Part shown: positions 15,950 to 48,513 of the stretch, piece after piece | Layout of the letters: each line of letters starts with the position of its first letter | Numbering within the stretch: position 1 is the first letter of the stretch | NCBI GenBank assembly: GCA_021826685.1 | Contig: JAKAYT010000004.1 | Location: forward strand, 9,462-73,461 | Reading direction: 5' to 3' | DNA: 64,000 nt | Source: Thermoplasmata archaeon | Lineage (GTDB): Archaea; Thermoplasmatota; Thermoplasmata; Lutacidiplasmatales; UBA184 | Made by a program: the position numbers and the translations under genes | The notes under the pieces: model-generated | What the model was told of the DNA's origin: nothing | The model's database searches: none | Seen by the model: the letters and a program-made list of their open reading frames with translations, nothing else

Positions 15950-16116
15950 TCGCGGCGACGCGATGGGGCGGCCTCTCTTAAGGACCCGGACCCTGCGCGG
16001 TACACTCCAGCCCAGAGGAGAGGCGGAGACGATCTCGTTTCGAGGTTGGACGAAAGATTATGCGGAGTGGGCCCCCTGAAAGCCCGCCCTGGGGAAGGAT
16101 CGGGCGGGAACTTCGC

Positions 16117-19100
16117 ATGCGACCGGGGTCACGACGCGAAGGAATTCGTCCGTGGGCCGCGCTAGCCGCGGGCCTGATCGGAGTCCTTCTCGTGGGCAGC
16201 GGAGCTTCGCTCGTCGCCGGTGCCGCGTCGACGTCCGTCGGCGTTTCGGGCGGCGCGACAAGCCTTTCCCTATCGTCGTTGCTCGTGGCGCCTCGGCTGG
16301 AGGTTTCCCAACTCGCGGGGGGCCCGTCGGACCTCAGGCCCATCGCTCCGTACAACGGTAGCATCAGCGTCTTTGTGGCGTTTGCATTTTCGAACCAGTC
16401 CCAACTCGCCCATCTTCTCGAGCGCCTTTCAAACACTCCCGCGGGACCCGACCGCACGTATCTGACCGCGGCCCAATTCGACCGCGCGTTCGCCGCGAAC
16501 GCGAGCGCGTACGCAGCGGCGCGGGCGTACTTCGGCGCTCTGCGAGGGGTGAACATGACCACGTACGCCGATCGTTCCGGCGTTTTCCTGAGCGGGCCGG
16601 CGCCTACGATCGCGCGGGCTTTCGGTGTCCGCATCGCGGAGTACTACCAGCCGAGCCGGGGCTCGTACTACGCCGTGATAGGAGCGCCGACACTTCCCGC
16701 GCCGATCGCCTCGTCGGTGATCCAGGTGACCGGACTGTCGGATTACGTGGCGTACCACAGCGACATCGCGTCAAGGGCAAACCTCGGAGCTGCGGAAGCG
16801 CCGGTCCGGTTCGACGGCTATCCGGTGCCGAACGAGACCGCGGGCGCGCAGCTGCTCTACGGGTCGGACCTGCAGGTCGCCTACGACGAGCAGGCGCTCC
16901 TGAACATATCGGATGCGAGCGACGAAGTGGTCGCGACGATCCTGTGGGCGGGCTGCAGCGTCAATACCACGGCCAGTTGCCCCACGAACGATCTTACCGC
17001 GCCGTTCGATCCGTCCGACGTCTACGCCTACTTCAACGACACCATCCCCGCGGGCGAGTCGCATGCCACGGTGTACGGAGTTCCCTTGAATGGCGCCCCG
17101 CCGCCCGGGCCTTCGGCCGCTTTGGACCAGTCGGGTGCGGTCGTGGAGAACTCCCTCGATCTCGAGATGGTCGGCAGCACTGCGCCCGGCGCACAAATCT
17201 ACAACGTCTACGGTACCAACTCCGGGGTGTCCGAAACGGACAACGCGATGGCGTCCATCCTGAACCCGCCAGCCGGATCCCCGCTCGAGAACGTTCAGGT
17301 GGTCTCGAACTCGTGGGGAGGCCCCGATGAAGTGAACGCTGCCTGGAGCCAGGACATGGAGGAGGCGGCGGCTCGCGGAATCACGGTCCTCGCGGCGACG
17401 GGAGATTCGGGAGACAATACCGAATCCACGAGCTACCTCGGCACCACGGTCGAGTTCCCCTCCACGGTCGCCTACAACACCTACGGCGTCATAGCGGTCG
17501 GTGGCACTACCCTCCGGTTGGATCTCCAGCACGGGGCCAATTATCTTCACATGCTCAACCAGACGGCATGGTACGACGTCAATGCCGATGGTGGCACGAA
17601 CGTTCTTGGGAGCACGGGAGGCACGAGTTCCCTATACTCCGAACCCTCGTGGCAGGCGAACTCCGAAGCCAACTCCTACATCGTCTCCTATGCGAGCCAG
17701 CACGAGGCTACGAGCGGCCAGCGCGGCGTGCCGGACGTCGCGGCGATCGCGAACAATACCTACGTGTTCTACCCGACCCCGGGCGGACGTCCCACGCTCG
17801 GGGCGGTCGCCGGGACCTCCGTCGCCGCGCCGGTCACCGCGGGGCTCGTCGCGGAGATCGACGCGGTCCTCGGCCGGTACGGTCAACCTCCGCTCGGGTT
17901 CGCCGATCCCGCGATCTATCAGTGGGCGAACGAGTACGATCAGACACCGCCTCCGCTTGCCAATGGTGGCGCGACGGGAACAGATCCCGTGGGCTCTTGG
18001 ACCTCCATGTTGCCGAGTTCCCCCGTATCGTTCATCACGAGCGGACACAACCTCCTCTTCCCCGCCCAGGCCGGATATAGCCTCGTCACGGGATGGGGAT
18101 CTCTCGACGCGTACAACTTCACCGCGTATCTCCTCGACGATAACTACTCAGGATCGGGGTTCGCGCTCAACGGAGTCGGCGCCCAACTCTCCCTATCGGG
18201 GCTCTCCGTATACAGCCGCGGAGGGAGCTACAACGCGTCGGTCCAGTTGAACGCCGTCATCGCGAACAGCTTGGGAGCGCCGCTCTACTGGGTCCAGAAC
18301 GTGATCTATCTCAACGCGACGTCGGGTGGAGCGTGGGCCGCAAATTACACCGGCTGGATCTCCTACCCCTATTTTGGCCTCTATCCGGGAGCGACGATCT
18401 ACACCTACGACTTCCCGGTATCGGGAACGACGATCGTGACCCCGAAGGTCTGGTCGATGACGATCTCGTTGTCCGGCAGCGGAGCCGGTCGGACGCTCAC
18501 CTTCGGTGTCAACGGCCAGGTCCTTTCGCTCTCCGTCCCGGGCGCTTCGTTCATCATCGCAGGGTACAACTACGATTACTTCTGGCAAGGGCAGGAGTTC
18601 ACGAATGGACCGTTTGCGAACAGCGCGTTTGCCGGCGACTCGGGAGGGCTCGACCCGCAGCTGGCCTTGGTGGGAGGACCTACCCTCGGACAGGGCATCT
18701 TCGGCCCTTCGACGACGGGCCAGCTGACGCTCACGGTCCAGGAGACCGGCCGATCGGCCTTCGTCGATGCGCCCGGCGCCGCGGCGATCCACGGGAGCGT
18801 GAGCCAGACCGGGGAGACGGCCACGAACCTGACCTGGGTCGGTAGCGGGTCGAACTGGAACGTTTCGTACGAGGCGGGCGCGAGCGACCAGGGAGTGGTC
18901 CTGTACAGCGTGCTCGATGCCGGGAACCCCGCGCTCGTCGGTTCGGCGAGGTACTCGGTCAATTTCACCGAGACCGGACTGCCGAGGGACTCGACCTGGA
19001 CCCTCGCTCTCGAGGGCTCGGGCGCCCCGCCGGCCATCACGTGCGTCGTGGGGAGCGTCGGAGCCGGTTGCAACGGAACGACGATCTCGTTCGAGCTCGG

Positions 19101-19905
19101 TAACGGGACCTTCAATTTCGAAACCTGGACCTTAAGCAACTACCTGCCTCGGACGGGTTCGGGCGCCCTGAGCGTTCACGGGGCCGCTCTCAACGAATCC
19201 GTCGAATTTGCCATGCCGCCCACCGGCGAGTACGTGATCACGTTCGAGGAGTCCGGACTTCCCCGCGGTACGATTTGGGCGGTCACCTCGATCGGACCCA
19301 CCGGCCCGGACAACGGTTCCTCCCCGGGTCCGGTCGTTCAGTTCCCCTTGGCCCCAGGTGCCTACCGGTATGCGGTGGCCCCCACCGCCGGCTACGCGGC
19401 GACTCCCGCCTTCGGATCGTTCCGCGTGGTGAACTCCACGCAGGTACTGTCGATCTCGTTCGCGCCGATGGGGTCGTCGGGTTCAACGTTCGCCGACCTA
19501 GGCTCGCTGTGTGTCGCCGAGACCTGCGGATTTCCGCTCATCTACCTGTTGGTGGGTATCGCGATCGTGGCCGGAGCGATCGCCGCAATAGGATCGCGGT
19601 TGAGCCGCCGGGCCGAACGCCGGGAGCGAACCGCGCGTGCGGCCCGGGCGACGGCCTCCCCACCGGTCGGTCCTTCCGACGCGGCGGTCCCATCCACCAC
19701 GTGGTCGCCTCCCGGCCTTCGTCACCCCGCCGAGCCCTCTTCGCCGGGCCGGGACCCGGAGCTGGCGGCTCCGGGATCGCCGCCTCCCGCGGACCCTCCC
19801 CTCTCCATCGTCTGCCCGACGTGCGGGTCCTCGATCCCGACCACGGCCCGATACTGCCCCTCCTGCGGGACGGCCGCTCCGCCCTCGGTCCCTCCGCACC
19901 GCTGA
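16117..19905 (+). CDS. secreted S53 (sedolisin/kumamolisin-like) serine peptidase with pro-domain, long beta-rich extension, C-terminal TM helix and cytosolic zinc-ribbon tail
   Basis: Signal/anchor WAALAAGLIGVLLVG. Pro-kumamolisin-like activation segment (TYLTAAQFDRAF...). Catalytic motifs ENSLDLEM, SNSWGG, ATGDSGD, AGTSVAAPVTAG. Many N-x-S/T sequons. TM LIYLLVGIAIVAGAIAAIG. Terminal CPTCGSSIPTTARYCPSCG. The track start at 16060 sits inside a TATA-like AAAGATTAT, so the ATG at 16117 is preferred. Confidence 0.85.
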   Translation: MRPGSRREGIRPWAALAAGLIGVLLVGSGASLVAGAASTSVGVSGGATSLSLSSLLVAPRLEVSQLAGGPSDLRPIAPYNGSISVFVAFAFSNQSQLAHLLERLSNTPAGPDRTYLTAAQFDRAFAANASAYAAARAYFGALRGVNMTTYADRSGVFLSGPAPTIARAFGVRIAEYYQPSRGSYYAVIGAPTLPAPIASSVIQVTGLSDYVAYHSDIASRANLGAAEAPVRFDGYPVPNETAGAQLLYGSDLQVAYDEQALLNISDASDEVVATILWAGCSVNTTASCPTNDLTAPFDPSDVYAYFNDTIPAGESHATVYGVPLNGAPPPGPSAALDQSGAVVENSLDLEMVGSTAPGAQIYNVYGTNSGVSETDNAMASILNPPAGSPLENVQVVSNSWGGPDEVNAAWSQDMEEAAARGITVLAATGDSGDNTESTSYLGTTVEFPSTVAYNTYGVIAVGGTTLRLDLQHGANYLHMLNQTAWYDVNADGGTNVLGSTGGTSSLYSEPSWQANSEANSYIVSYASQHEATSGQRGVPDVAAIANNTYVFYPTPGGRPTLGAVAGTSVAAPVTAGLVAEIDAVLGRYGQPPLGFADPAIYQWANEYDQTPPPLANGGATGTDPVGSWTSMLPSSPVSFITSGHNLLFPAQAGYSLVTGWGSLDAYNFTAYLLDDNYSGSGFALNGVGAQLSLSGLSVYSRGGSYNASVQLNAVIANSLGAPLYWVQNVIYLNATSGGAWAANYTGWISYPYFGLYPGATIYTYDFPVSGTTIVTPKVWSMTISLSGSGAGRTLTFGVNGQVLSLSVPGASFIIAGYNYDYFWQGQEFTNGPFANSAFAGDSGGLDPQLALVGGPTLGQGIFGPSTTGQLTLTVQETGRSAFVDAPGAAAIHGSVSQTGETATNLTWVGSGSNWNVSYEAGASDQGVVLYSVLDAGNPALVGSARYSVNFTETGLPRDSTWTLALEGSGAPPAITCVVGSVGAGCNGTTISFELGNGTFNFETWTLSNYLPRTGSGALSVHGAALNESVEFAMPPTGEYVITFEESGLPRGTIWAVTSIGPTGPDNGSSPGPVVQFPLAPGAYRYAVAPTAGYAATPAFGSFRVVNSTQVLSISFAPMGSSGSTFADLGSLCVAETCGFPLIYLLVGIAIVAGAIAAIGSRLSRRAERRERTARAARATASPPVGPSDAAVPSTTWSPPGLRHPAEPSSPGRDPELAAPGSPPPADPPLSIVCPTCGSSIPTTARYCPSCGTAAPPSVPPHR

Positions 19906-20920: not shown

Positions 20921-21000
20921 ATCGCGTTGGGAATACCCTGAAATACGTTGACCCGGTCTCTCGCGCCGAGGGCAGGATCGGGCCCGTAGCTCAGCCCGGT

Positions 21001-21031
21001 AGGCCGCAGGCAGGCGCCTTCGGCCCGGGAC
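21001..21031 (+). other. tRNA intron 1 (31 nt) in the D-loop, about position 20/21, relaxed BHB
   Basis: Central helix CCCG(20995-98)/CGGG(21026-29), bulges GTA and ACA, inner helix GGCCG/CGGCC. The D stem acts as outer helix, offset by two unpaired nt. The exact cut is ambiguous within 1-2 nt. Confidence 0.7.
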
Positions 21032-21070
21032 AGAGCAGCTGGCTTTTAACCAGTTGGCCGGGGGTTCGAA

Positions 21071-21108
21071 CGCGGGTGCCGCTCGACGTGTCTCGGACCC
21101 GCCGAAAT
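21071..21108 (+). other. tRNA intron 2 (38 nt) in the T-loop, position 59/60, canonical BHB
   Basis: Outer helix is the T stem GGGGG/CCCCC. Central 4-bp helix TTCG/CGAA, 3-nt bulges AAC and ATT, inner helix GCGGG/CCCGC. Cutting after the second bulge nt restores TTCGAAT. Confidence 0.8.
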
Positions 21109-21152
21109 TCCCCCCGGGCCCGCTCCCCCCTCCGCATCCCCTCTGAGGTTCC

Positions 21153-21494
21153 ATGAGTCCTACTCGAGCCCGCGCGTCCTCGCGCTCCAGGAAGTCCGCC
21201 GCCAAGACCGCAACCCCGCCACGCCCGTTCGTGGCCCATCGTCTCGTCCCGCCGCACGAGCTGCTCAGCGAAGAGGAATCGAAGCGCGTGCTCGCGGAGC
21301 TCCGCACGGTGCCCGAACGGCTACCGAAGATCCTGCTACAGGATCCGGGCCTCAACACCGATCCCGAGTTCGTGAAGGCGAAGGAGGCGGGGATGCCGCT
21401 CGGAGGGCGCCTCGTGCGGATCCGTCGCCCCAGCGATACGGCCGGCCTCTCGATCGCCTATCGGGTGATTGTCGCAGGTACCGGGGGTCCGTAG
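21153..21494 (+). CDS. rpoH: DNA-directed RNA polymerase subunit H (Rpo5) with a basic N-terminal extension
   Basis: [22 protein letters not shown]...LPKILLQDP...[17 protein letters not shown] matches the Rpb5 C-terminal domain. Lies immediately upstream of rpoB. Confidence 0.85.
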
Positions 21495-21496
21495 CC

Positions 21497-24400
21497 ATGC
21501 GCGAGATCGTCGACGCCTTCTTCCGGGAGCGGTCGATCGTCAACCACCACCTCGCGAGCTTCAACGATTTCCTGCCGACGAACGACAACCCCAATTCGCG
21601 CATGCAGCGGATCGTCGACGAGTCGCGCGTGAGCGAGGACTCCACGGAGCGCGGGATCGTTCGCCTGGACGTGCAGAAGACGAAGAGTTCCATCTACGTG
21701 CGCGTCGGTCGGCGTCGTGACCCGCGCACCGGCCAAGTGAGCCCCTCGGCGGAACCGACGATCTTCGTGGGCCAGCCGTTCGTCAAAGAGCCGGTGGGCT
21801 CGAAGCCGACGCTCACCCCCATGGAAGCGCGACTGCGGAACCTCACCTACCAAGCGCCGATCTTCCTCAATGTGACGGTCGTCGAGAACGGCGTGGAGCG
21901 CGCGCCCGAGAACGTGCACATCGGCGATCTCCCGATCATGGTCAAGAGCCGGCCCTGCAACCTAAACCGAGTGAACATCGAGCGCGACTCCGGTTTCCCC
22001 ATCTCCGACGAGGAGTACCGCGCGAAGCTCGTCGAGTACGGCGAGGACCCGCTCGATCCCGGAGGCTACTTCATCATCGGCGGCACCGAGCGCGTGATCA
22101 TCAGCCTCGAGGACCTAGCGCCGAACCGGATCTTCGCGGAGTACAGCGAGCGGTACGGGACGCCGGTCGAGAGCGCGAAGGTCTTCAGCCAGCGCGGTGG
22201 CTACCGGTCCCTCACCGTCGTCGAGAAGAAGAAGGAGGGGATTCTCCAAGTCAGCGTCCCGACGGCGAGCGGCCAGATCCCGCTGGTCGTCCTGATGAAG
22301 GCCCTCGGGATGAAGAACGACGAGGAGATCTTCCAGGCGGTTCTGGGAGAGCTGCTCCCGTTGGACGAGCCATTCGTCCAGACGATGAAGCATCTCCTCA
22401 ACGTCAACCTCGAGGAGTCCCTCTCCAAGAAGACCTACCCTCCCGAGGGGATCCTGACGACCGAGGACGCGCTCCTCTTCCTAGAGAAGAAGTTTGCCAC
22501 GGGCCAAGCGAAGGAGTACCGTCAGCGCAAGGTCGATGGCATCCTCGACCGGTCGCTCCTCCCCCATCTCGGGGACACGAGGGCCGACCGCCTGAAGAAG
22601 GCCCTCTACCTCGCGCGCATGGCGCGTACGGTGCTCGAGCTCCACCTCAAGGAGCGCGGCGAGGACGACAAGGATCACTACGCGAACAAGCGCCTCAAGC
22701 TCGCGGGGGATCTTATGGAGGACCTGTTCCGGGTCGCCTTCAGCCTGCTGCTCAAGGATCTCAAGTACCAACTCGAGCGCTCGTTCGCCCGCAAGAAGGA
22801 CCTGAGGATCGCGAGCGCGATCCGGCCGGACCTCCTGACGCAGCGGCTCGTTCACGCGCTCGCCACCGGGAACTGGGTCGGCGGTCGCGCCGGCGTCAGC
22901 CAGGTGCTGGACCGGACGAGCCACATGTCGACGATCAGCCACCTGCGCCGGGTCACAAGCCCGCTCACCCGCACGCAGCCTCACTTCGAGGCGCGCGACC
23001 TGCATCCGACCCAGTTCGGACGCCTATGTCCGAACGAGACCCCCGAAGGGCAGAATTGCGGGCTCGTCAAGAACTACGCGCTCTGCGTCGACGTCAGTGA
23101 AGGCGCCGACGAGGACGAGGTCGCCCTCATCCTACGCGACCTCAACACGCGCGAGATCGGACCCGAGGTATTCCAAGAGGGAAACGCCCCGAAGGGCAAG
23201 CGCGCGGCGCGTATCTACGTCAACGGGAACCTCGTCGGCCTGCATTCGAGCCCCGTGGAACTCGTCCGCGAGATCCGCGAGCGGCGCCGAGCGGGCACGC
23301 TCAGCCCCGCGCTCGCCGACCGCACCGCGGAGGTCAACGTGCGCTACGACTCGGTGATGAACGAGGTCATCGTCAACTGCGACTCGGGCCGTCTCCGCCG
23401 CCCTCTCATCGTCGTCCAGGACGGAGTTCCACGCGTAACCCAGCCCGACCTCGACGACCTCCGCAACGGAGTGCGCAGCTACTCGGACCTTGTTCGCGGC
23501 GGGCAGGTCGAGTGGATCGATGCCGAAGAGGAAGAGGACGCGCTGGTCTCGATCGATTCCTTCGTCGCACCGGAGCGCTGCCCGAAGTGCAGCCACGCCC
23601 TGTCGCGCAGCGACGTCCGATGGACGGGCGTATCGCCCGGCGGCGGCAAAGCCACGGTGGAGTGTCGGCATTGCCACGCCGGCTTCTCGGTGGCGAGCCC
23701 GCTGGATTCCCGCTACACCCACCTCGAGATCGACCCGAACCTGATGCTCGGCGTCTGCACGGGGCTCATCCCGTACCCCGAGCACAACAGCGCTCCGCGC
23801 AACACGATGGGTTCGGCCATGGCGAAGCAAGCCCTCGGTGTCGAGTCGGTGAACTACCGCCGCCGTCCCGATACCCGCGGCCATCTTCTGCACTACCCCC
23901 AGGCGCCGCTCTTGCGCACGCAGACGATGCGCTACGTGCATTTCACCGAGCGGCCGGCGGGCCAGAACTTCGTCGTGGCGGTGTTGAGCTACGAGGGCTA
24001 CAACATGCAGGACGCTCTCGTCTTCAGCCGCGGCGCGATCGAGCGCGGCCTCGGCCGCTCGTCGTTCTTCCGGACGTACCGCGGAGAAGAGCGCAAGTAT
24101 CCCGGGGGCCAGGAGGATCGCTTCGAGATCCCCCGGCCCGACGTCGCGGGCGCTCGGGTCGACACCTCCTACCGTAACCTCGCCGAGGACGGTCTCATCT
24201 TCCCGGAACTCGAGGTCGGAGAGGGCGACGTGCTCATCGGTAAGACGAGCCCGCCCCGGTTCCTCGAGGAAAAGACCGACCTGCTCACCCCGCAAAAACG
24301 GCGCGAGACCAGCGTCACGGTTCGTTTCGGTGAGTCGGGTTGGGTCGACAACGTCGTTCTTACCGAAGGGGAGAACATCTCCAAGCTCGTCAAGGTCAAG

Positions 24401-25171
24401 GTTCGGAACCAGCGCGTACCGGAGCTCGGCGATAAGTTCGCGAGCCGGCACGGGCAGAAGGGAGTCATCGGTCTGATCACCCCGACCGAGAACCTGCCGT
24501 TCGCACGGAACGGCATGACCCCGGACCTTCTGATCAATCCGCACGCGATCCCGTCGCGCATGACGGTCGCCCACGTCCTCGAGATGCTGGGCGGCAAGGT
24601 CGGTGCGCTCGAGGGACGCACGATCGATGGAACGGCGTTCGGTGGCGAGCGCGAAGGCGCCCTGCGCGAGGCTCTTCAGGGCCTCGGCTTTCACCCGTCC
24701 GGCCGAGAGACGTTGTACGACGGTCTGACGGGCCGCCGGTTCGAGGCGGAGATCTTTGTCGGCGTGATCTACTACCAGAAGCTCCACCACATGGTTGCCG
24801 GTAAGATGCACATGCGCTCGCGGGGGCCGGTGCAGATCCTGACCCGACAGCCGACCGAGGGCCGCTCGCGCCAGGGCGGCCTACGGTTCGGTGAGATGGA
24901 GCGCGACTGCCTGATCGGCCACGGCGTCGCGATGGTCATCAAGGACCGCTTGCTCGACGAGTCCGACGGCACGGTGCAGTACGTCTGCGGGAACCCCGAG
25001 TGCGGGCACATCGCCATCCCCGACGCGCGGGCGGGATCGCTGCGCTGTCCCAGCTGCGGGAACACCTCGTCGATCTATCCGGTCGAAATGAGCTATTCGT
25101 TCAAGCTCCTCTTGGAGGAGCTGATCAGCCTCGGCGTGATCATGCGGCTCGAGCTCGAGGAGATGCGGTAG
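21497..25171 (+). CDS. rpoB: DNA-directed RNA polymerase subunit B (unsplit, 1224 aa)
   Basis: [48 protein letters not shown] and a C-terminal zinc ribbon CGNPECGH...CPSCG. Confidence 0.97.
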
Positions 25172-40730: not shown

Positions 40731-42182
40731 ATGGCGGCCCCGCTTCTCCTCGTCCCTCGCGACGAGTTCACGTACGACATCGAGGTCGACGCCGCGCGTG
40801 GCATGCGCGTGCCGGGTCGCTTGTTCTCGAGTCCGGCGCTGCTGGGCGATGTGGCGCACGATCCGGCGATCGACCAGCTGGCCAACGTCGCGACCCTTCC
40901 GGGCATCGTCGAGCGATCTCTCGCGATGCCCGACATCCACTTCGGATACGGCTTCCCTGTGGGAGGCGTCGCCGCCTTCGACCTCGACGAGGGGATCGTC
41001 AGTCCTGGCGGGATCGGGTACGACATCAACTGTGGGGTCCGACTGCTGCGCACCGATCTCACCGAGACGGAAGTGCGCCCGAAGCTCACCGAGCTCACCG
41101 AACAGCTTTACCGGGCGGTCCCCGCGGGCGTCGGCTCGAAGGCCGGCTCGCTGCTACGAGAGTCGGAGATGGACGAAGTGCTCGTCGGGGGGGCTCGATG
41201 GCTCGTCGAGAAGGGGGGCGGAACGCCGACGGACCTTACGGTCCAGGAAGAGAACGGATGCCTGGCCGGCGCCGATCCGCATCTCGTGAGCCCGGAGGCG
41301 CGCAAGCGCGGGAGCCGTCAGCTGGGCACCCTGGGGAGCGGAAACCACTTTCTCGAGGTCCAGAAGGTAGACCGGCTCTTCGACCCCGCATGCGCGAAGG
41401 CGTTCGGGCTCGAAGAGCGCCAGGTCGTCGTCATGCTGCATACGGGCTCGCGTGGGCTGGGTCACCAGGTCGCGACCGATTACATCCGGAAGATGGACCA
41501 GGATCTTCTCCAACGGGGAGTCAAGCTCGTCGACCGTCAACTGTGCTGCGCTCCGATCAGCTCGGACGGGGCGCAGAAGTACCTGGCGGCGATGGCGGCG
41601 GCCGCCAATTTCGCATGGGCCAACCGCCAGGCGATCACCGCGGGGGTTCGGCGCGCCTTCGAAGGAACGTTCGGGCGGTCGGCCGACGACCTGGGGATCG
41701 AGGTCGTCTACGACATCGCGCACAACATGGCCAAGTTCGAATCGCACGTTACCGAAAGCGGACCTCGGCGACTGCTCGTGCACCGCAAGGGCGCTACCCG
41801 TGCCTTCCCGGCGGGACGGGATGAGGTTTCCGAGGCGTATCGCTCGAGCGGGCAACCCGTGCTCATCCCGGGGGACATGGGAACGGCGAGCTACGTCCTC
41901 GTCGGCCTTCCGACCTCGTTGATCCGTTCGTTCGGCTCGTCCTGCCACGGCGCCGGCCGACGGCTGAGCCGGAGCGCGGCAGCCCGCACCTTCCGATTCG
42001 ACGAGGTGACCCGTTCCCTGCGGGGTCGCGGCATCGTGGTCCGCTCCTCCTCCCGGGAAGGGGTCACCGAAGAAGCGCCCGGTGCCTACAAGGACATCGA
42101 GGAGGTCGTGCGCGTGGCCGAGGGCGCAGGACTGACCCGGCGCGTCGCTCGCCTGACACCGATGGGCGTCGTCAAGGGCTAG
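40731..42182 (+). CDS. rtcB: RNA 3'-phosphate / tRNA-splicing ligase RtcB
   Basis: AMPDIHFGYGFPVGGVAAF, GGIGYDINCGVR, GSGNHFLE, HTGSRGLGHQ, CHGAGR motifs. Confidence 0.95.
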   Translation: MAAPLLLVPRDEFTYDIEVDAARGMRVPGRLFSSPALLGDVAHDPAIDQLANVATLPGIVERSLAMPDIHFGYGFPVGGVAAFDLDEGIVSPGGIGYDINCGVRLLRTDLTETEVRPKLTELTEQLYRAVPAGVGSKAGSLLRESEMDEVLVGGARWLVEKGGGTPTDLTVQEENGCLAGADPHLVSPEARKRGSRQLGTLGSGNHFLEVQKVDRLFDPACAKAFGLEERQVVVMLHTGSRGLGHQVATDYIRKMDQDLLQRGVKLVDRQLCCAPISSDGAQKYLAAMAAAANFAWANRQAITAGVRRAFEGTFGRSADDLGIEVVYDIAHNMAKFESHVTESGPRRLLVHRKGATRAFPAGRDEVSEAYRSSGQPVLIPGDMGTASYVLVGLPTSLIRSFGSSCHGAGRRLSRSAAARTFRFDEVTRSLRGRGIVVRSSSREGVTEEAPGAYKDIEEVVRVAEGAGLTRRVARLTPMGVVKG

Positions 42183-45969: not shown

Positions 45970-47174
45970 GCGCGGACCTCCCGGGTCACCGTGGGGCGGC
46001 CCCGACTGCCCCGCTCGAGCAGATCGGCGAGGCGGGGCATGTCCCCGGGTGCCAGGCCGAGGCGCGCCGCCTCCGCGGTACCGATCCGGCCGACCAGGTC
46101 GATGAGAAGCCCCTGGCGCTCGAGGCGGCGGGCGAGAGCTCCGCTCCCATACCCGCGCTTCGCGTGCAGCTCGGACGCATCGATGTGGATCTGGTGGGAT
46201 CGGGTGTACCCGTGGTTCGCGGCCACGATCGGCCACCCCTTCTCGGCCAGCGCGGCGCCGAGCGCCTGGGCGTTCGCCACGGTCGTGCGCGCGTAGTCAG
46301 GTCCGAACCGCTCGAGTTCGAGGAGCGTCTGGGTCACTCCGGCGATCCGGTTCCAGTGCGCGTTATCGAAGATCCTCCAGACCAGCGCCGGGTCGATCTG
46401 CCGGAAGAGATCCTCCCGGTCGGTCACGAGCAACCCCCCTTGGGGGCCGGGGAAGGACTTGTGCGTGCTGCCGAAGAGCACGTCCACGCCGGCTCGCAGG
46501 GGGTCCTGGAACTCTCCGCCGGCAATCAACCCCAGGACGTGCGAAGCGTCGTAGAGGACGAGCGCCTCTACGGAGTGTGCGGCTTCGACGATCTCGGCGA
46601 GGGGATAGGGGAAGAGAAAGAAGCTCTGGCCCAGGATGACCGCCTGAGGCCGCTCGGACTGGATGGCGGCTACTGCGGCCTCCGCGTCGACGGAGTGGCC
46701 GACCCCGCCGGCCGGCAGCGGTCGCACGGTGTAGCCGAGCAGCGCCGGGATGAAGCCGGGAGCGTATCCGTCGTATCCGCCGTCCTTCGGCTCGATCGCG
46801 AGGACCTTGCTCTTCGCCGGCAGCAACGGCGCGAGCGCGCTCAGCGCCGCGATGTGGCCCGAGAGGGGACGAACGGTCGCGTAGCGTCCGTGGAAGAGGC
46901 GTGCGGCCGCCGCGTTTCCGAGCTTTTCGATCGCATCGGTGTAGCGCGTCCCGGTGTAGGAGTTGTCAATCCGCTCGCCGCGCCAGTCGGAGTCGATCGG
47001 GAGCGTGTAGCGCCCGGCGAGATCGCTTCCGAGGTATTTGCGCGCGGCGGGACTGACCGCGTTTTCGCTCGGAAGTAGATTGAAGACGGCGCGGCCCCGC
47101 CAGCGTTCGTGCGCGCGAACGAGGCGAGCCAGCTCGACCTCATCGGTCCCCGGGTCGGCGGGCACGTCGGTCAC
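45933..47174 (-). CDS. glyA: serine hydroxymethyltransferase-family PLP enzyme (divergent)
   Basis: NLLPSENAVSP, LYDASHVLGLIAGG and GSTHKSFPGPQGG (PLP lysine). GTG at 47174 overlaps the csl4 stop (GTGA). Confidence 0.85.
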   Translation of the reverse strand: MTDVPADPGTDEVELARLVRAHERWRGRAVFNLLPSENAVSPAARKYLGSDLAGRYTLPIDSDWRGERIDNSYTGTRYTDAIEKLGNAAAARLFHGRYATVRPLSGHIAALSALAPLLPAKSKVLAIEPKDGGYDGYAPGFIPALLGYTVRPLPAGGVGHSVDAEAAVAAIQSERPQAVILGQSFFLFPYPLAEIVEAAHSVEALVLYDASHVLGLIAGGEFQDPLRAGVDVLFGSTHKSFPGPQGGLLVTDREDLFRQIDPALVWRIFDNAHWNRIAGVTQTLLELERFGPDYARTTVANAQALGAALAEKGWPIVAANHGYTRSHQIHIDASELHAKRGYGSGALARRLERQGLLIDLVGRIGTAEAARLGLAPGDMPRLADLLERGSRGRPTVTREVRAWRRTFVGLKFV

Positions 47175-48392: not shown

Positions 48393-48513
48393 TGCGGGGA
48401 GCCGGATTCGAACCGGCGTACGCCTTCGCGACAGGATCTCCGGTGCCAGGGACGCTCGGCGCGCCCACCGACGCTTTAAGTCCTGCGCCGTTGCCGGGCT
48501 TGGCTATCCCCGC
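48393..48513 (-). tRNA. tRNA-Leu (anticodon UAA), class II, with an intron of about 37 nt at or near 37/38
   Basis: Minus-strand read GCGGGGA-TA-GCC..GGC-G-CAGGA-CTTAAA[37 nt]A-TCCTG-TCGCGAAGGCGTAC-GCCGG-TTCGAAT-CCGGC-TCCCCGC-A. Intron at about 48438-48474. No encoded CCA. Confidence 0.85.

Follow-up and report, generated by a model that had tools for sequence, protein, structure and literature searches.

Whether a lysine tRNA gene can be interrupted twice outside its anticodon loop in a Thermoplasmata archaeon is the question raised by a 143-nt locus on contig JAKAYT010000004.1 of the assembly GCA_021826685.1. The whole stretch of DNA that was analysed, hereafter the window, is 64,000 nucleotides (nt) long and has a GC content of 67%. 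An earlier note on this DNA had proposed that positions 20980-21122 hold a tRNA-Lys(UUU) gene with two non-canonical bulge-helix-bulge (BHB) introns, at position 20/21 in the D-loop and position 59/60 in the T-loop, and none at 37/38. A cloverleaf call, a fold showing both BHBs, and deep conservation with compensatory changes all bear this out. We consider the locus to be a functional tRNA-Lys(UUU) gene of a GC-rich Thermoplasmata archaeon with two protein-spliced introns, and put the probability of this at roughly 85%. The gene consists of the following segments.

20980-21000, plus strand: exon 1, 21 nt, GGGCCCGTAGCTCAGCCCGGT; acceptor 5' strand, U8 A9, D-stem 5' strand, and D-loop A14-U20
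21001-21031, plus strand: intron 1, 31 nt, AGGCCGCAGGCAGGCGCCTTCGGCCCGGGAC; D-loop position 20/21
21032-21070, plus strand: exon 2, 39 nt, AGAGCAGCTGGCTTTTAACCAGTTGGCCGGGGGTTCGAA; A21, D-stem 3' strand, anticodon arm, variable loop, T-stem 5' strand, and T54-A59
21043-21049, plus strand: anticodon loop CTTTTAA within exon 2, with the anticodon TTT at 21045-21047
21071-21108, plus strand: intron 2, 38 nt, CGCGGGTGCCGCTCGACGTGTCTCGGACCCGCCGAAAT; T-loop position 59/60
21109-21122, plus strand: exon 3, 14 nt, TCCCCCCGGGCCCG; U60, T-stem 3' strand, acceptor 3' strand, and discriminator G73

The five-segment coordinates matched those of the earlier note exactly, and ARAGORN called the 74-nt exon join as tRNA-Lys(ttt). 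The stems of the joined tRNA were intact (acceptor 7 bp, D stem 4 bp, anticodon stem 5 bp, and T stem 5 bp), with a single G.U pair, 27:43, in the anticodon stem. Intronless orthologues, described below, were 93% identical to the spliced product, with 73.5 bits for the Rfam tRNA model RF00005. The three exons are collinear inside 143 nt, so the gene is neither split nor permuted. CCA is not encoded after exon 3, where CTC stands instead. With the junction marked by a slash, the predicted spliced sequences are GGT/AGAGC in the D-loop and TTCGAA/TCCCC in the T-loop, and the longer predicted T-loop junction sequence is GTTGGCCGGGGGTTCGAATCCCCCCGGGCCCG.

In the canonical archaeal BHB, each strand carries a helix, a 4-nt central helix, a 3-nt bulge, and a further helix, with cleavage 3' of the second nucleotide of the bulge. 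The rule derives from introns at 37/38, in which intron position -3 is the partner of nucleotide 32. The elements of the two motifs at the locus are given below, with a slash inside each bulge for the predicted cut.

21060-21064 and 21110-21114, plus strand: outer helix of the T-loop motif, formed by the T stem GGGGG with CCCCC
21065-21068 and 21103-21106, plus strand: T-loop central helix, TTCG (T54-G57) with CGAA
21069-21071 and 21107-21109, plus strand: T-loop bulges AA/C and AT/T
21072-21077 and 21097-21102, plus strand: T-loop inner helix, GCGGGT with ACCCGC
20995-20998 and 21026-21029, plus strand: D-loop central helix, CCCG (C16-G18) with CGGG
20999-21001 and 21030-21032, plus strand: D-loop bulges GT/A and AC/A
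21002-21006 and 21021-21025, plus strand: D-loop inner helix, GGCCG with CGGCC

The T-loop motif is a strict hBHBh', in which the 5-bp T stem, the 4-bp central helix, and a 6-bp inner helix are stacked with zero extra nucleotides, so that its description as a textbook 3-4-3 BHB built on the T stem was correct. The D-loop motif has a 3-4-3 core, and its outer helix, the D stem, is offset by 2 nt owing to the unpaired A14 and G15, which is the relaxed form that had been proposed for this insert. In the window, both introns thus have two bulges separated by a 4-bp helix. In each case the 3' part of the intron pairs with nucleotides of the tRNA loop itself, 16-18 in the D arm and 54-57 in the T arm. 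The two introns are dissimilar to each other, and blastn revealed no second copy of either in the window.

The unspliced 143 nt were folded with RNAfold, the check named in the earlier note. The acceptor, D, anticodon, and T stems and both intron hairpins, including both BHBs, appeared together in one minimum free energy (MFE) structure. The MFE of the precursor was -78.4 kcal/mol (z = -2.7), and none of 200 shuffled sequences folded as well. The free RNAfold structure was shifted by one pair in the D arm.

The unspliced gene was not detected by ARAGORN at default settings, by ARAGORN -i, which allows introns in the anticodon loop, or by Rfam at the gathering threshold; for these programs, the expectation that default finders would miss it was right. 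Rfam in the permissive E-value mode gave a mis-registered tRNA match of 13.4 bits at the locus. The matches of sRNA-Xcc1 (17.9 bits) and PyrR209 (17.2 bits) at the same place were far under the gathering score and were attributed to chance. No Rfam intron model matched there, and the inserts are 31 and 38 nt long, indicating that they are not self-splicing group I or group II introns, which run to hundreds of nucleotides around a ribozyme core and usually lie in the anticodon loop. The non-canonical intron search of tRNAscan-SE 2.0 is on by default in its archaeal mode (PMC8450103). That program could well find the gene, and GenBank records may already carry tRNA-Lys genes of this kind, silently annotated by it. 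Tools without such a search will score tRNA-Lys(UUU) as missing from metagenome-assembled genomes (MAGs) of this clade, which affects quality calls on the 'tRNA complement' under the minimum information about a metagenome-assembled genome (MIMAG) standard.

A blind scan was carried out over both strands of the 64 kb, in which every candidate 3-4-3 BHB motif and every candidate pair was spliced out and the product submitted to ARAGORN. Among 88,717 two-intron combinations, only five ARAGORN calls resulted, and all five lay at the tRNA-Lys locus. Two of them were the two-intron tRNA-Lys, in the two D-loop registers discussed below, and the other three were mis-registered, with intron 2 retained. 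The observation is therefore above chance, and the locus is not a chance cloverleaf. A further match of the BHB scan, at 46141-46210, formed a poor cloverleaf with mismatched stems and was rejected.

Relatives were then considered. Genomes were retrieved through RpoH, which is encoded 30 nt downstream of the tRNA. The five matches were all MAGs labelled 'Thermoplasmata archaeon', with RpoH identities of 88-61%, and all five had identical segment lengths of 21/31/39/38/14 nt. A pattern scan of metagenome contigs with exon 2 yielded at least 120 loci; here and below, metagenome counts refer to the matches listed. Both introns were present in at least 103 complete copies from metagenomes or genomes, 94 of them unique, whose contigs had a GC content of 0.62-0.73. 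The D-loop intron was 31 nt long in 94 of 94 unique copies despite a sequence identity of only ~69%, and the T-loop intron was 31-38 nt long, with 38 nt in 79 of 94. Mean pairwise identity was 93% for exon 1, 97.6% for exon 2, and 99.8% for exon 3, compared with 69% for intron 1 and 61% for intron 2. Outside D-loop positions 16-17a, exon 1 was 100% invariant in the 79 aligned relatives. The pattern scan also picked up a 9516-nt contig (L040, GC 0.47) with ~25 bacterial-type tRNA genes on one strand, whose tRNA-Lys shares the exon-2 pattern and is unrelated.

Covariation was assessed in a gapless alignment (A1) of 79 unique sequences, with counts that ignore phylogeny. When BHBs and cloverleaf were imposed together, 94.7% of cells were paired, compared with 89.9% in column shuffles (0 of 500 reached the observed value) and 37-56% in slid controls whose partners were moved by 1-3 columns. 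Sixteen pairs showed changes on both sides, that is, compensatory changes. In the D-loop, pair 17:49 was UA in 44 sequences, CG in 19, and UG in 15, with 1 break, and pair 18:48 was AU in 43 and CG in 36, with 0 breaks. The inner helices of both introns also changed on both sides. The T-loop central helix, which had 4 bp in 90 of the 94 unique relatives, was paired in 99.4% of cells, and its sole variation was A to G or G to A opposite U54 and U55; the variation is one-sided because the exon side cannot change. Invariant exons together with introns that drift and still pair form the pattern that would be expected of spliced BHB introns.

Several points weigh against this reading. The D-loop motif is not a strict hBHBh', its outer side being relaxed. 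In 55 of the 94 unique relatives, the D-loop central helix had 3 bp and a 16:50 mismatch, leaving 39 with 4 bp, and an alternative cut register was equally good in many relatives. The pair counts above take no account of shared ancestry. The tRNA splicing endonuclease EndA was not found in the window or, except for L010, in ~735 kb of related loci (L001-L125), when six-frame open reading frames (ORFs) were searched by phmmer with Methanocaldococcus jannaschii EndA and with a hidden Markov model of five solved EndAs; L010, the sole match, is an intronless AT-rich contig. Lastly, that both introns are spliced is itself something we infer from sequence.

The rival that survives best concerns only the place of the D-loop cut. 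In register a, the intron is 21001-21031 (20/21), the mature tRNA has 74 nt with the D-loop ...GGUAGAGC, and the junction sequence is predicted as CTCAGCCCGGTAGAGCAGCTGG. In register b, the cut would fall 1 nt further in on each side, and the T-loop intron would be as described. Under this reading, the intron would span 21002-21030 (29 nt), the central helix would draw on tRNA positions 17-19 plus G19:C, and the mature tRNA of 76 nt would retain two extra D-loop residues, 20a and 20b, giving the D-loop ...GGUNNAGAGC and the junction CTCAGCCCGGTACAGAGCAGCTGG. Because the alignment shows no variation at G19, G23, and C46, the 5' bulge is free to shift by one position. Register b provides a 4-bp central helix in 93 of the 94 unique relatives, compared with 39 of 94 for register a; it is the choice of RNAalifold, its 76-nt product was also accepted by ARAGORN, and the two nucleotides it retains differ from one relative to another, which is also usual for 20a and 20b in tRNAs at large. 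In the window, however, C16:G50 pairs too, which turns register b into a 5-bp helix with a 2-nt bulge, as in all 39 sequences with a 16:50 pair. Constrained folding of the window sequence gave -27.0 kcal/mol for register a and -23.6 kcal/mol for register b, which is worse by 3.4 kcal/mol. Among 79 relatives, register a was better in 27, tied in 46, and worse in 6, and was thus equal or better in 73. Moreover, in alignment column 50 every G faces C16 and every A faces U16, and the 20/21 junction restores the 9-nt D-loop AGYYNGGUA seen in intronless orthologues. For the window we therefore favour register 20/21 as the probable one and consider register b unlikely.

A second rival holds that a separate intact gene supplies the working tRNA-Lys(UUU), the present locus being a chance cloverleaf or a pseudogene in decay. 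In its favour, the search for such a gene covered the window alone, and standard finders do not call the tRNA-Lys gene described here. However, the exons are invariant outside D-loop 16-17a even where RpoH is only 55-60% identical, the introns drift yet keep their helices, and the blind scan found nothing comparable elsewhere in the window. In addition, all 109 GC-rich loci with this exon 2, among the matches listed, have the introns, and no intronless paralogue was seen among them. We regard this rival as highly improbable. Equally hard to sustain is the idea that the inserts are never removed and form hairpin extensions of the D- and T-loops in the mature RNA. In that case the G18/G19-U55/C56 elbow, on which the ribosome and the synthetase depend, would be lost. 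Moreover, both inserts show the exact 3-4-3 geometry cut by EndA, their boundaries regenerate canonical loops, and orthologues that lack one insert, or both, still represent this same tRNA.

How a doubly interrupted precursor would mature can be outlined from the established archaeal pathway. EndA would cut after the second nucleotide of each bulge, and the four cuts would release three exons with 2',3'-cyclic phosphate and 5'-OH ends. RtcB would ligate the three exons into the 74-nt tRNA, RNase P and RNase Z would trim the ends, and CCA would be added by the CCA-adding enzyme. The ligase is encoded in the window where it had been placed.

40731-42182, plus strand: RtcB, 3'-phosphate RNA ligase; full-length match to Pfam PF01139, 573 bits

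Both introns would sequester partners of the elbow, G18/G19 in one arm and U54-C56 in the other, so the L-shape should be blocked until both are removed. A blocked L-shape would in turn leave both BHBs exposed on extended arms.

The T-loop intron requires no relaxed EndA, because its motif is a strict hBHBh'. The D-loop intron plausibly requires an EndA of relaxed specificity, because its outer side is relaxed and the 16:50 pair is absent in most relatives (51 of the 79 aligned). The wild-type alpha'2 EndA of Archaeoglobus fulgidus hardly cleaves even a strict BHB in the D-loop, and slow D-loop cleavage was explained by the tRNA core being a steric obstacle (Hirata et al. 2011, PMC3241643). 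The EndA of Thermoplasma acidophilum is alpha'2 and listed as 'narrow' (PMC6379350), alpha'2 is described as the only form in 'Cluster II' Euryarchaeota (PMC5829648), and Korarchaeum was called the sole alpha2 organism with non-canonical introns (PMC4033280). With an alpha'2, 'narrow' EndA in T. acidophilum, a fixed D-loop intron in a Thermoplasmata clade is at odds with the published picture of co-evolution. A Thermoplasmata clade, perhaps of order level, keeps both introns, and related Thermoplasmatota keep the D-loop intron alone. Two explanations may be put forward, and we offer them tentatively, as possible and no better than that. Either a 'Cluster II' EndA independently acquired a specificity that is broader or no longer tied to position, by way of a new loop or subunit arrangement, or the paired introns cooperate by blocking the elbow, so that an ordinary narrow alpha'2 EndA reaches a D-loop BHB on which it would otherwise hardly act. 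Either of them, if true, would revise the published scheme of EndA-tRNA co-evolution.

An EndA profile search of a 5.8-billion-protein set gave 5349 matches, and the 120 listed came from Methanococci, Methanopyrus, DPANN, and similar archaea. Matches with a GC-rich amino-acid composition belonged to Methanopyrus sp., not to this clade, and were discarded. In the course of this search, endA was observed directly 5' of a tRNA-synt_1b gene, which is trpS in Methanopyrus sp. (L131/L132:4001-5923) and unnamed in another contig (L130:4001-5639, 51% GC). This synteny could help locate endA in Thermoplasmata MAGs.

The same tRNA gene occurred in relatives with none, one, or both of the introns, and taxon labels were assigned to these relatives by exact RpoH look-ups. 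Seven loci of lower GC content (0.32-0.48; L008, L020, L030, L039, L096, L098, and L113) had no intron, and the tRNA stood directly before rpoH; their RpoH labels were 'Thermoplasmata archaeon', or 'Thermoplasmatales archaeon A-plasma' for L098. In three loci (L064, L066, and L070; GC 0.53-0.55), the D-loop intron stood alone, again at 20/21, with a length of 38-40 nt and CTAG/CTAG as its central helix; the RpoH of L070 is that of 'Thermoplasmatales archaeon ex4484_6'. A D-loop intron alone, of 146 nt and at the same site, was also present in L018 (4358-4581; GC 0.47), which bears the label 'Ca. Thermoplasmatota archaeon'. Both introns were found in the GC-rich clade (GC 0.62-0.73), which includes the window, and no loss was seen among its 109 loci in the matches listed. 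In the simplest history, the D-loop intron would be the older one, since other Thermoplasmatota have it without the T-loop intron, and the T-loop intron would have been added in the GC-rich clade. Independent gains may be an alternative history.

The relatives in Joint Genome Institute (JGI) metagenomes presumably come from peat and soil samples, to judge by the sample prefixes. The GC-rich clade is plausibly Lutacidiplasmatales, or Terrestrial Miscellaneous Euryarchaeotal Group (TMEG), with which the GC content of 67%, the unlinked rRNA genes, and the peat and soil relatives agree; this group was described by Sheridan et al. 2022 (PMC9287336). The NCBI labels of the window proteins are 'Ca. 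Thermoplasmatota archaeon' or 'Thermoplasmatales archaeon', and an identical RpoH is present in GCA_027378035.1 and many ENA assemblies.

The surroundings of the gene are likewise conserved. The features next to it are as follows.

20939-20946, plus strand: conserved element TGAAATAC, at -41 to -34, about 35-40 nt 5' of the tRNA
20958-20972, plus strand: 5'-flank hairpin CTCTCG-CGC-CGAGGG, at -22 to -8, covarying
21153-21494, plus strand: rpoH (RNA polymerase subunit H), Pfam PF01191; starts 30 nt 3' of the tRNA, with GAGG at 21145-21148 before the start
21497-25171, plus strand: rpoB, unsplit, directly after rpoH

In 89 of 89 testable two-intron loci, rpoH lay 3' of the tRNA, with RpoH identities to the window of 55-100% (median 61%). 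The spacing between the tRNA and the rpoH start was 22-31 nt, with GAGG preceding the start, and the linkage also held in intronless and D-loop-only Thermoplasmatota. The tRNA-Lys gene probably lies within the leader of the rpoH-rpoB-rpoA transcript. GAAATA began at -40 in 60 of 101 upstream regions (consensus aTAggcTgAAATACg), and the TGAAATAC element is a candidate TATA-like promoter element. At the place of the hairpin, relatives had TCCGA/TCGGA or CCCCAG/CTGGGG, with changes on both sides.

Two traits to which the earlier note had appealed as Thermoplasmata-like were also found, namely the unsplit rpoB and an unlinked 16S rRNA gene, beside which Rfam gave no 23S rRNA match in the window. 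The rpoH ORF itself encodes 113 aa, including a 26-residue N-terminal extension rich in Arg, Ser, and Ala, whereas NCBI records of the same cluster annotate 87 aa. The tblastn matches in relatives span residues 1-112, which suggests that the extension is coding and conserved. Upstream, a 1281-aa ORF (16060-19905, plus strand) has a pro-kumamolisin activation domain near its N-terminus and a C-terminal zinc ribbon, and most of its length is without a Pfam match.

A second tRNA gene was detected in the window.

48393-48513, minus strand: class II tRNA with an insert of ~37 nt in the anticodon loop; found by ARAGORN -i, and by Rfam with 44.6 bits on a 300-nt region

This gene was missed by default ARAGORN and by the whole-window Rfam scan at the gathering threshold. 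ARAGORN -i labelled it Ser(tga). In view of its discriminator, A73, it is most likely tRNA-Leu(UAA). No choice of junction yields a 3-4-3 BHB, and the 37/38 option resembles a bulge-helix-loop, in which C32 pairs with intron position -3 and the 3' bulge has 3 nt. ARAGORN -i also made two spurious calls on the window, with 'introns' of 47 and 643 nt. Both tRNA genes detected in the 64 kb are interrupted, which hints at an intron-rich lineage from a sample of two genes. Default ARAGORN found no other tRNAs in the GC-rich loci of the relatives.

Introns of this kind are already known from other archaea: 59/60, D-loop, and multi-intron tRNAs all have precedents. A close one is found in ARMAN-2 (Ca. 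Micrarchaeum), whose pre-tRNA-Cys(GCA) and pre-tRNA-Pro(GGG) have introns at the same 59/60 site, with the T stem as the outer helix (Fujishima et al. 2011, PMC3239211). Its tRNA-Pro combines a strict hBHBh' with a second intron (PMC3239211), as does tRNA-Lys here. In contrast, the tRNA-Cys intron of ARMAN-2 is a relaxed hBH of 13 nt (PMC3239211), whereas the T-loop intron of tRNA-Lys is strict and 31-38 nt long. ARMAN-2 also differs in that other tRNAs are interrupted, in a different phylum, and in that its three-unit epsilon2 EndA is of proven broad specificity (PMC3239211).

For the D-loop intron, the pre-tRNA-Thr2(UGU) of Aeropyrum pernix and the pre-tRNA-Glu(UUC) of Methanopyrus kandleri are comparable, with D-loop introns that are excised from a BHB or HBh' (PMC3241643; Kaneta et al. 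2018, PMC5829648). M. kandleri is likewise a euryarchaeon with a multi-intron tRNA. However, both organisms have (alpha-beta)2 EndAs, and neither D-loop substrate is cut appreciably by the alpha'2 enzyme of A. fulgidus.

Thermoproteales resemble the present case in that a single tRNA gene can contain as many as three short BHB introns, in the D-, anticodon-, and T-arm, according to Sugahara et al. 2008 as cited in PMC4033280 and PMC8450103. As that work is represented there, the introns amount to 0.84 per tRNA gene, are mutually similar, and are thought to have spread by transposition. Unlike these, the two introns of tRNA-Lys are mutually unrelated, old, and fixed at one orthologous gene, with no other copy in the window. 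The intronless tRNA-Lys(UUU) genes before rpoH in AT-rich or A-plasma-like Thermoplasmatales represent the same tRNA at the same position.

Among Euryarchaeota with alpha4 or alpha'2 endonucleases, only single introns at the canonical position were described (PMC4090602), and multi-intron tRNAs were listed for Crenarchaeota, Nanoarchaeum, M. kandleri, Methanothermobacter thermautotrophicus, Korarchaeum, and ARMAN only (PMC4033280). The view that such introns are unusual for Thermoplasmata-like genomes agrees with these surveys and with PMC5829648, and also with the Thermoplasmata labels of the relatives. We found no paper describing such introns in Thermoplasmata, in a literature search of incomplete coverage. 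As far as the literature searched shows, what is new is the Thermoplasmata host, the presence of both introns as fixed features of one orthologous gene throughout a deep clade, and the series of relatives with no intron, the D-loop intron only, or both. A widespread soil and peat clade of Thermoplasmata would thus carry two fixed non-canonical introns in one essential tRNA, and the graded intron series constitutes a natural experiment on the co-evolution of endonuclease specificity and intron position.

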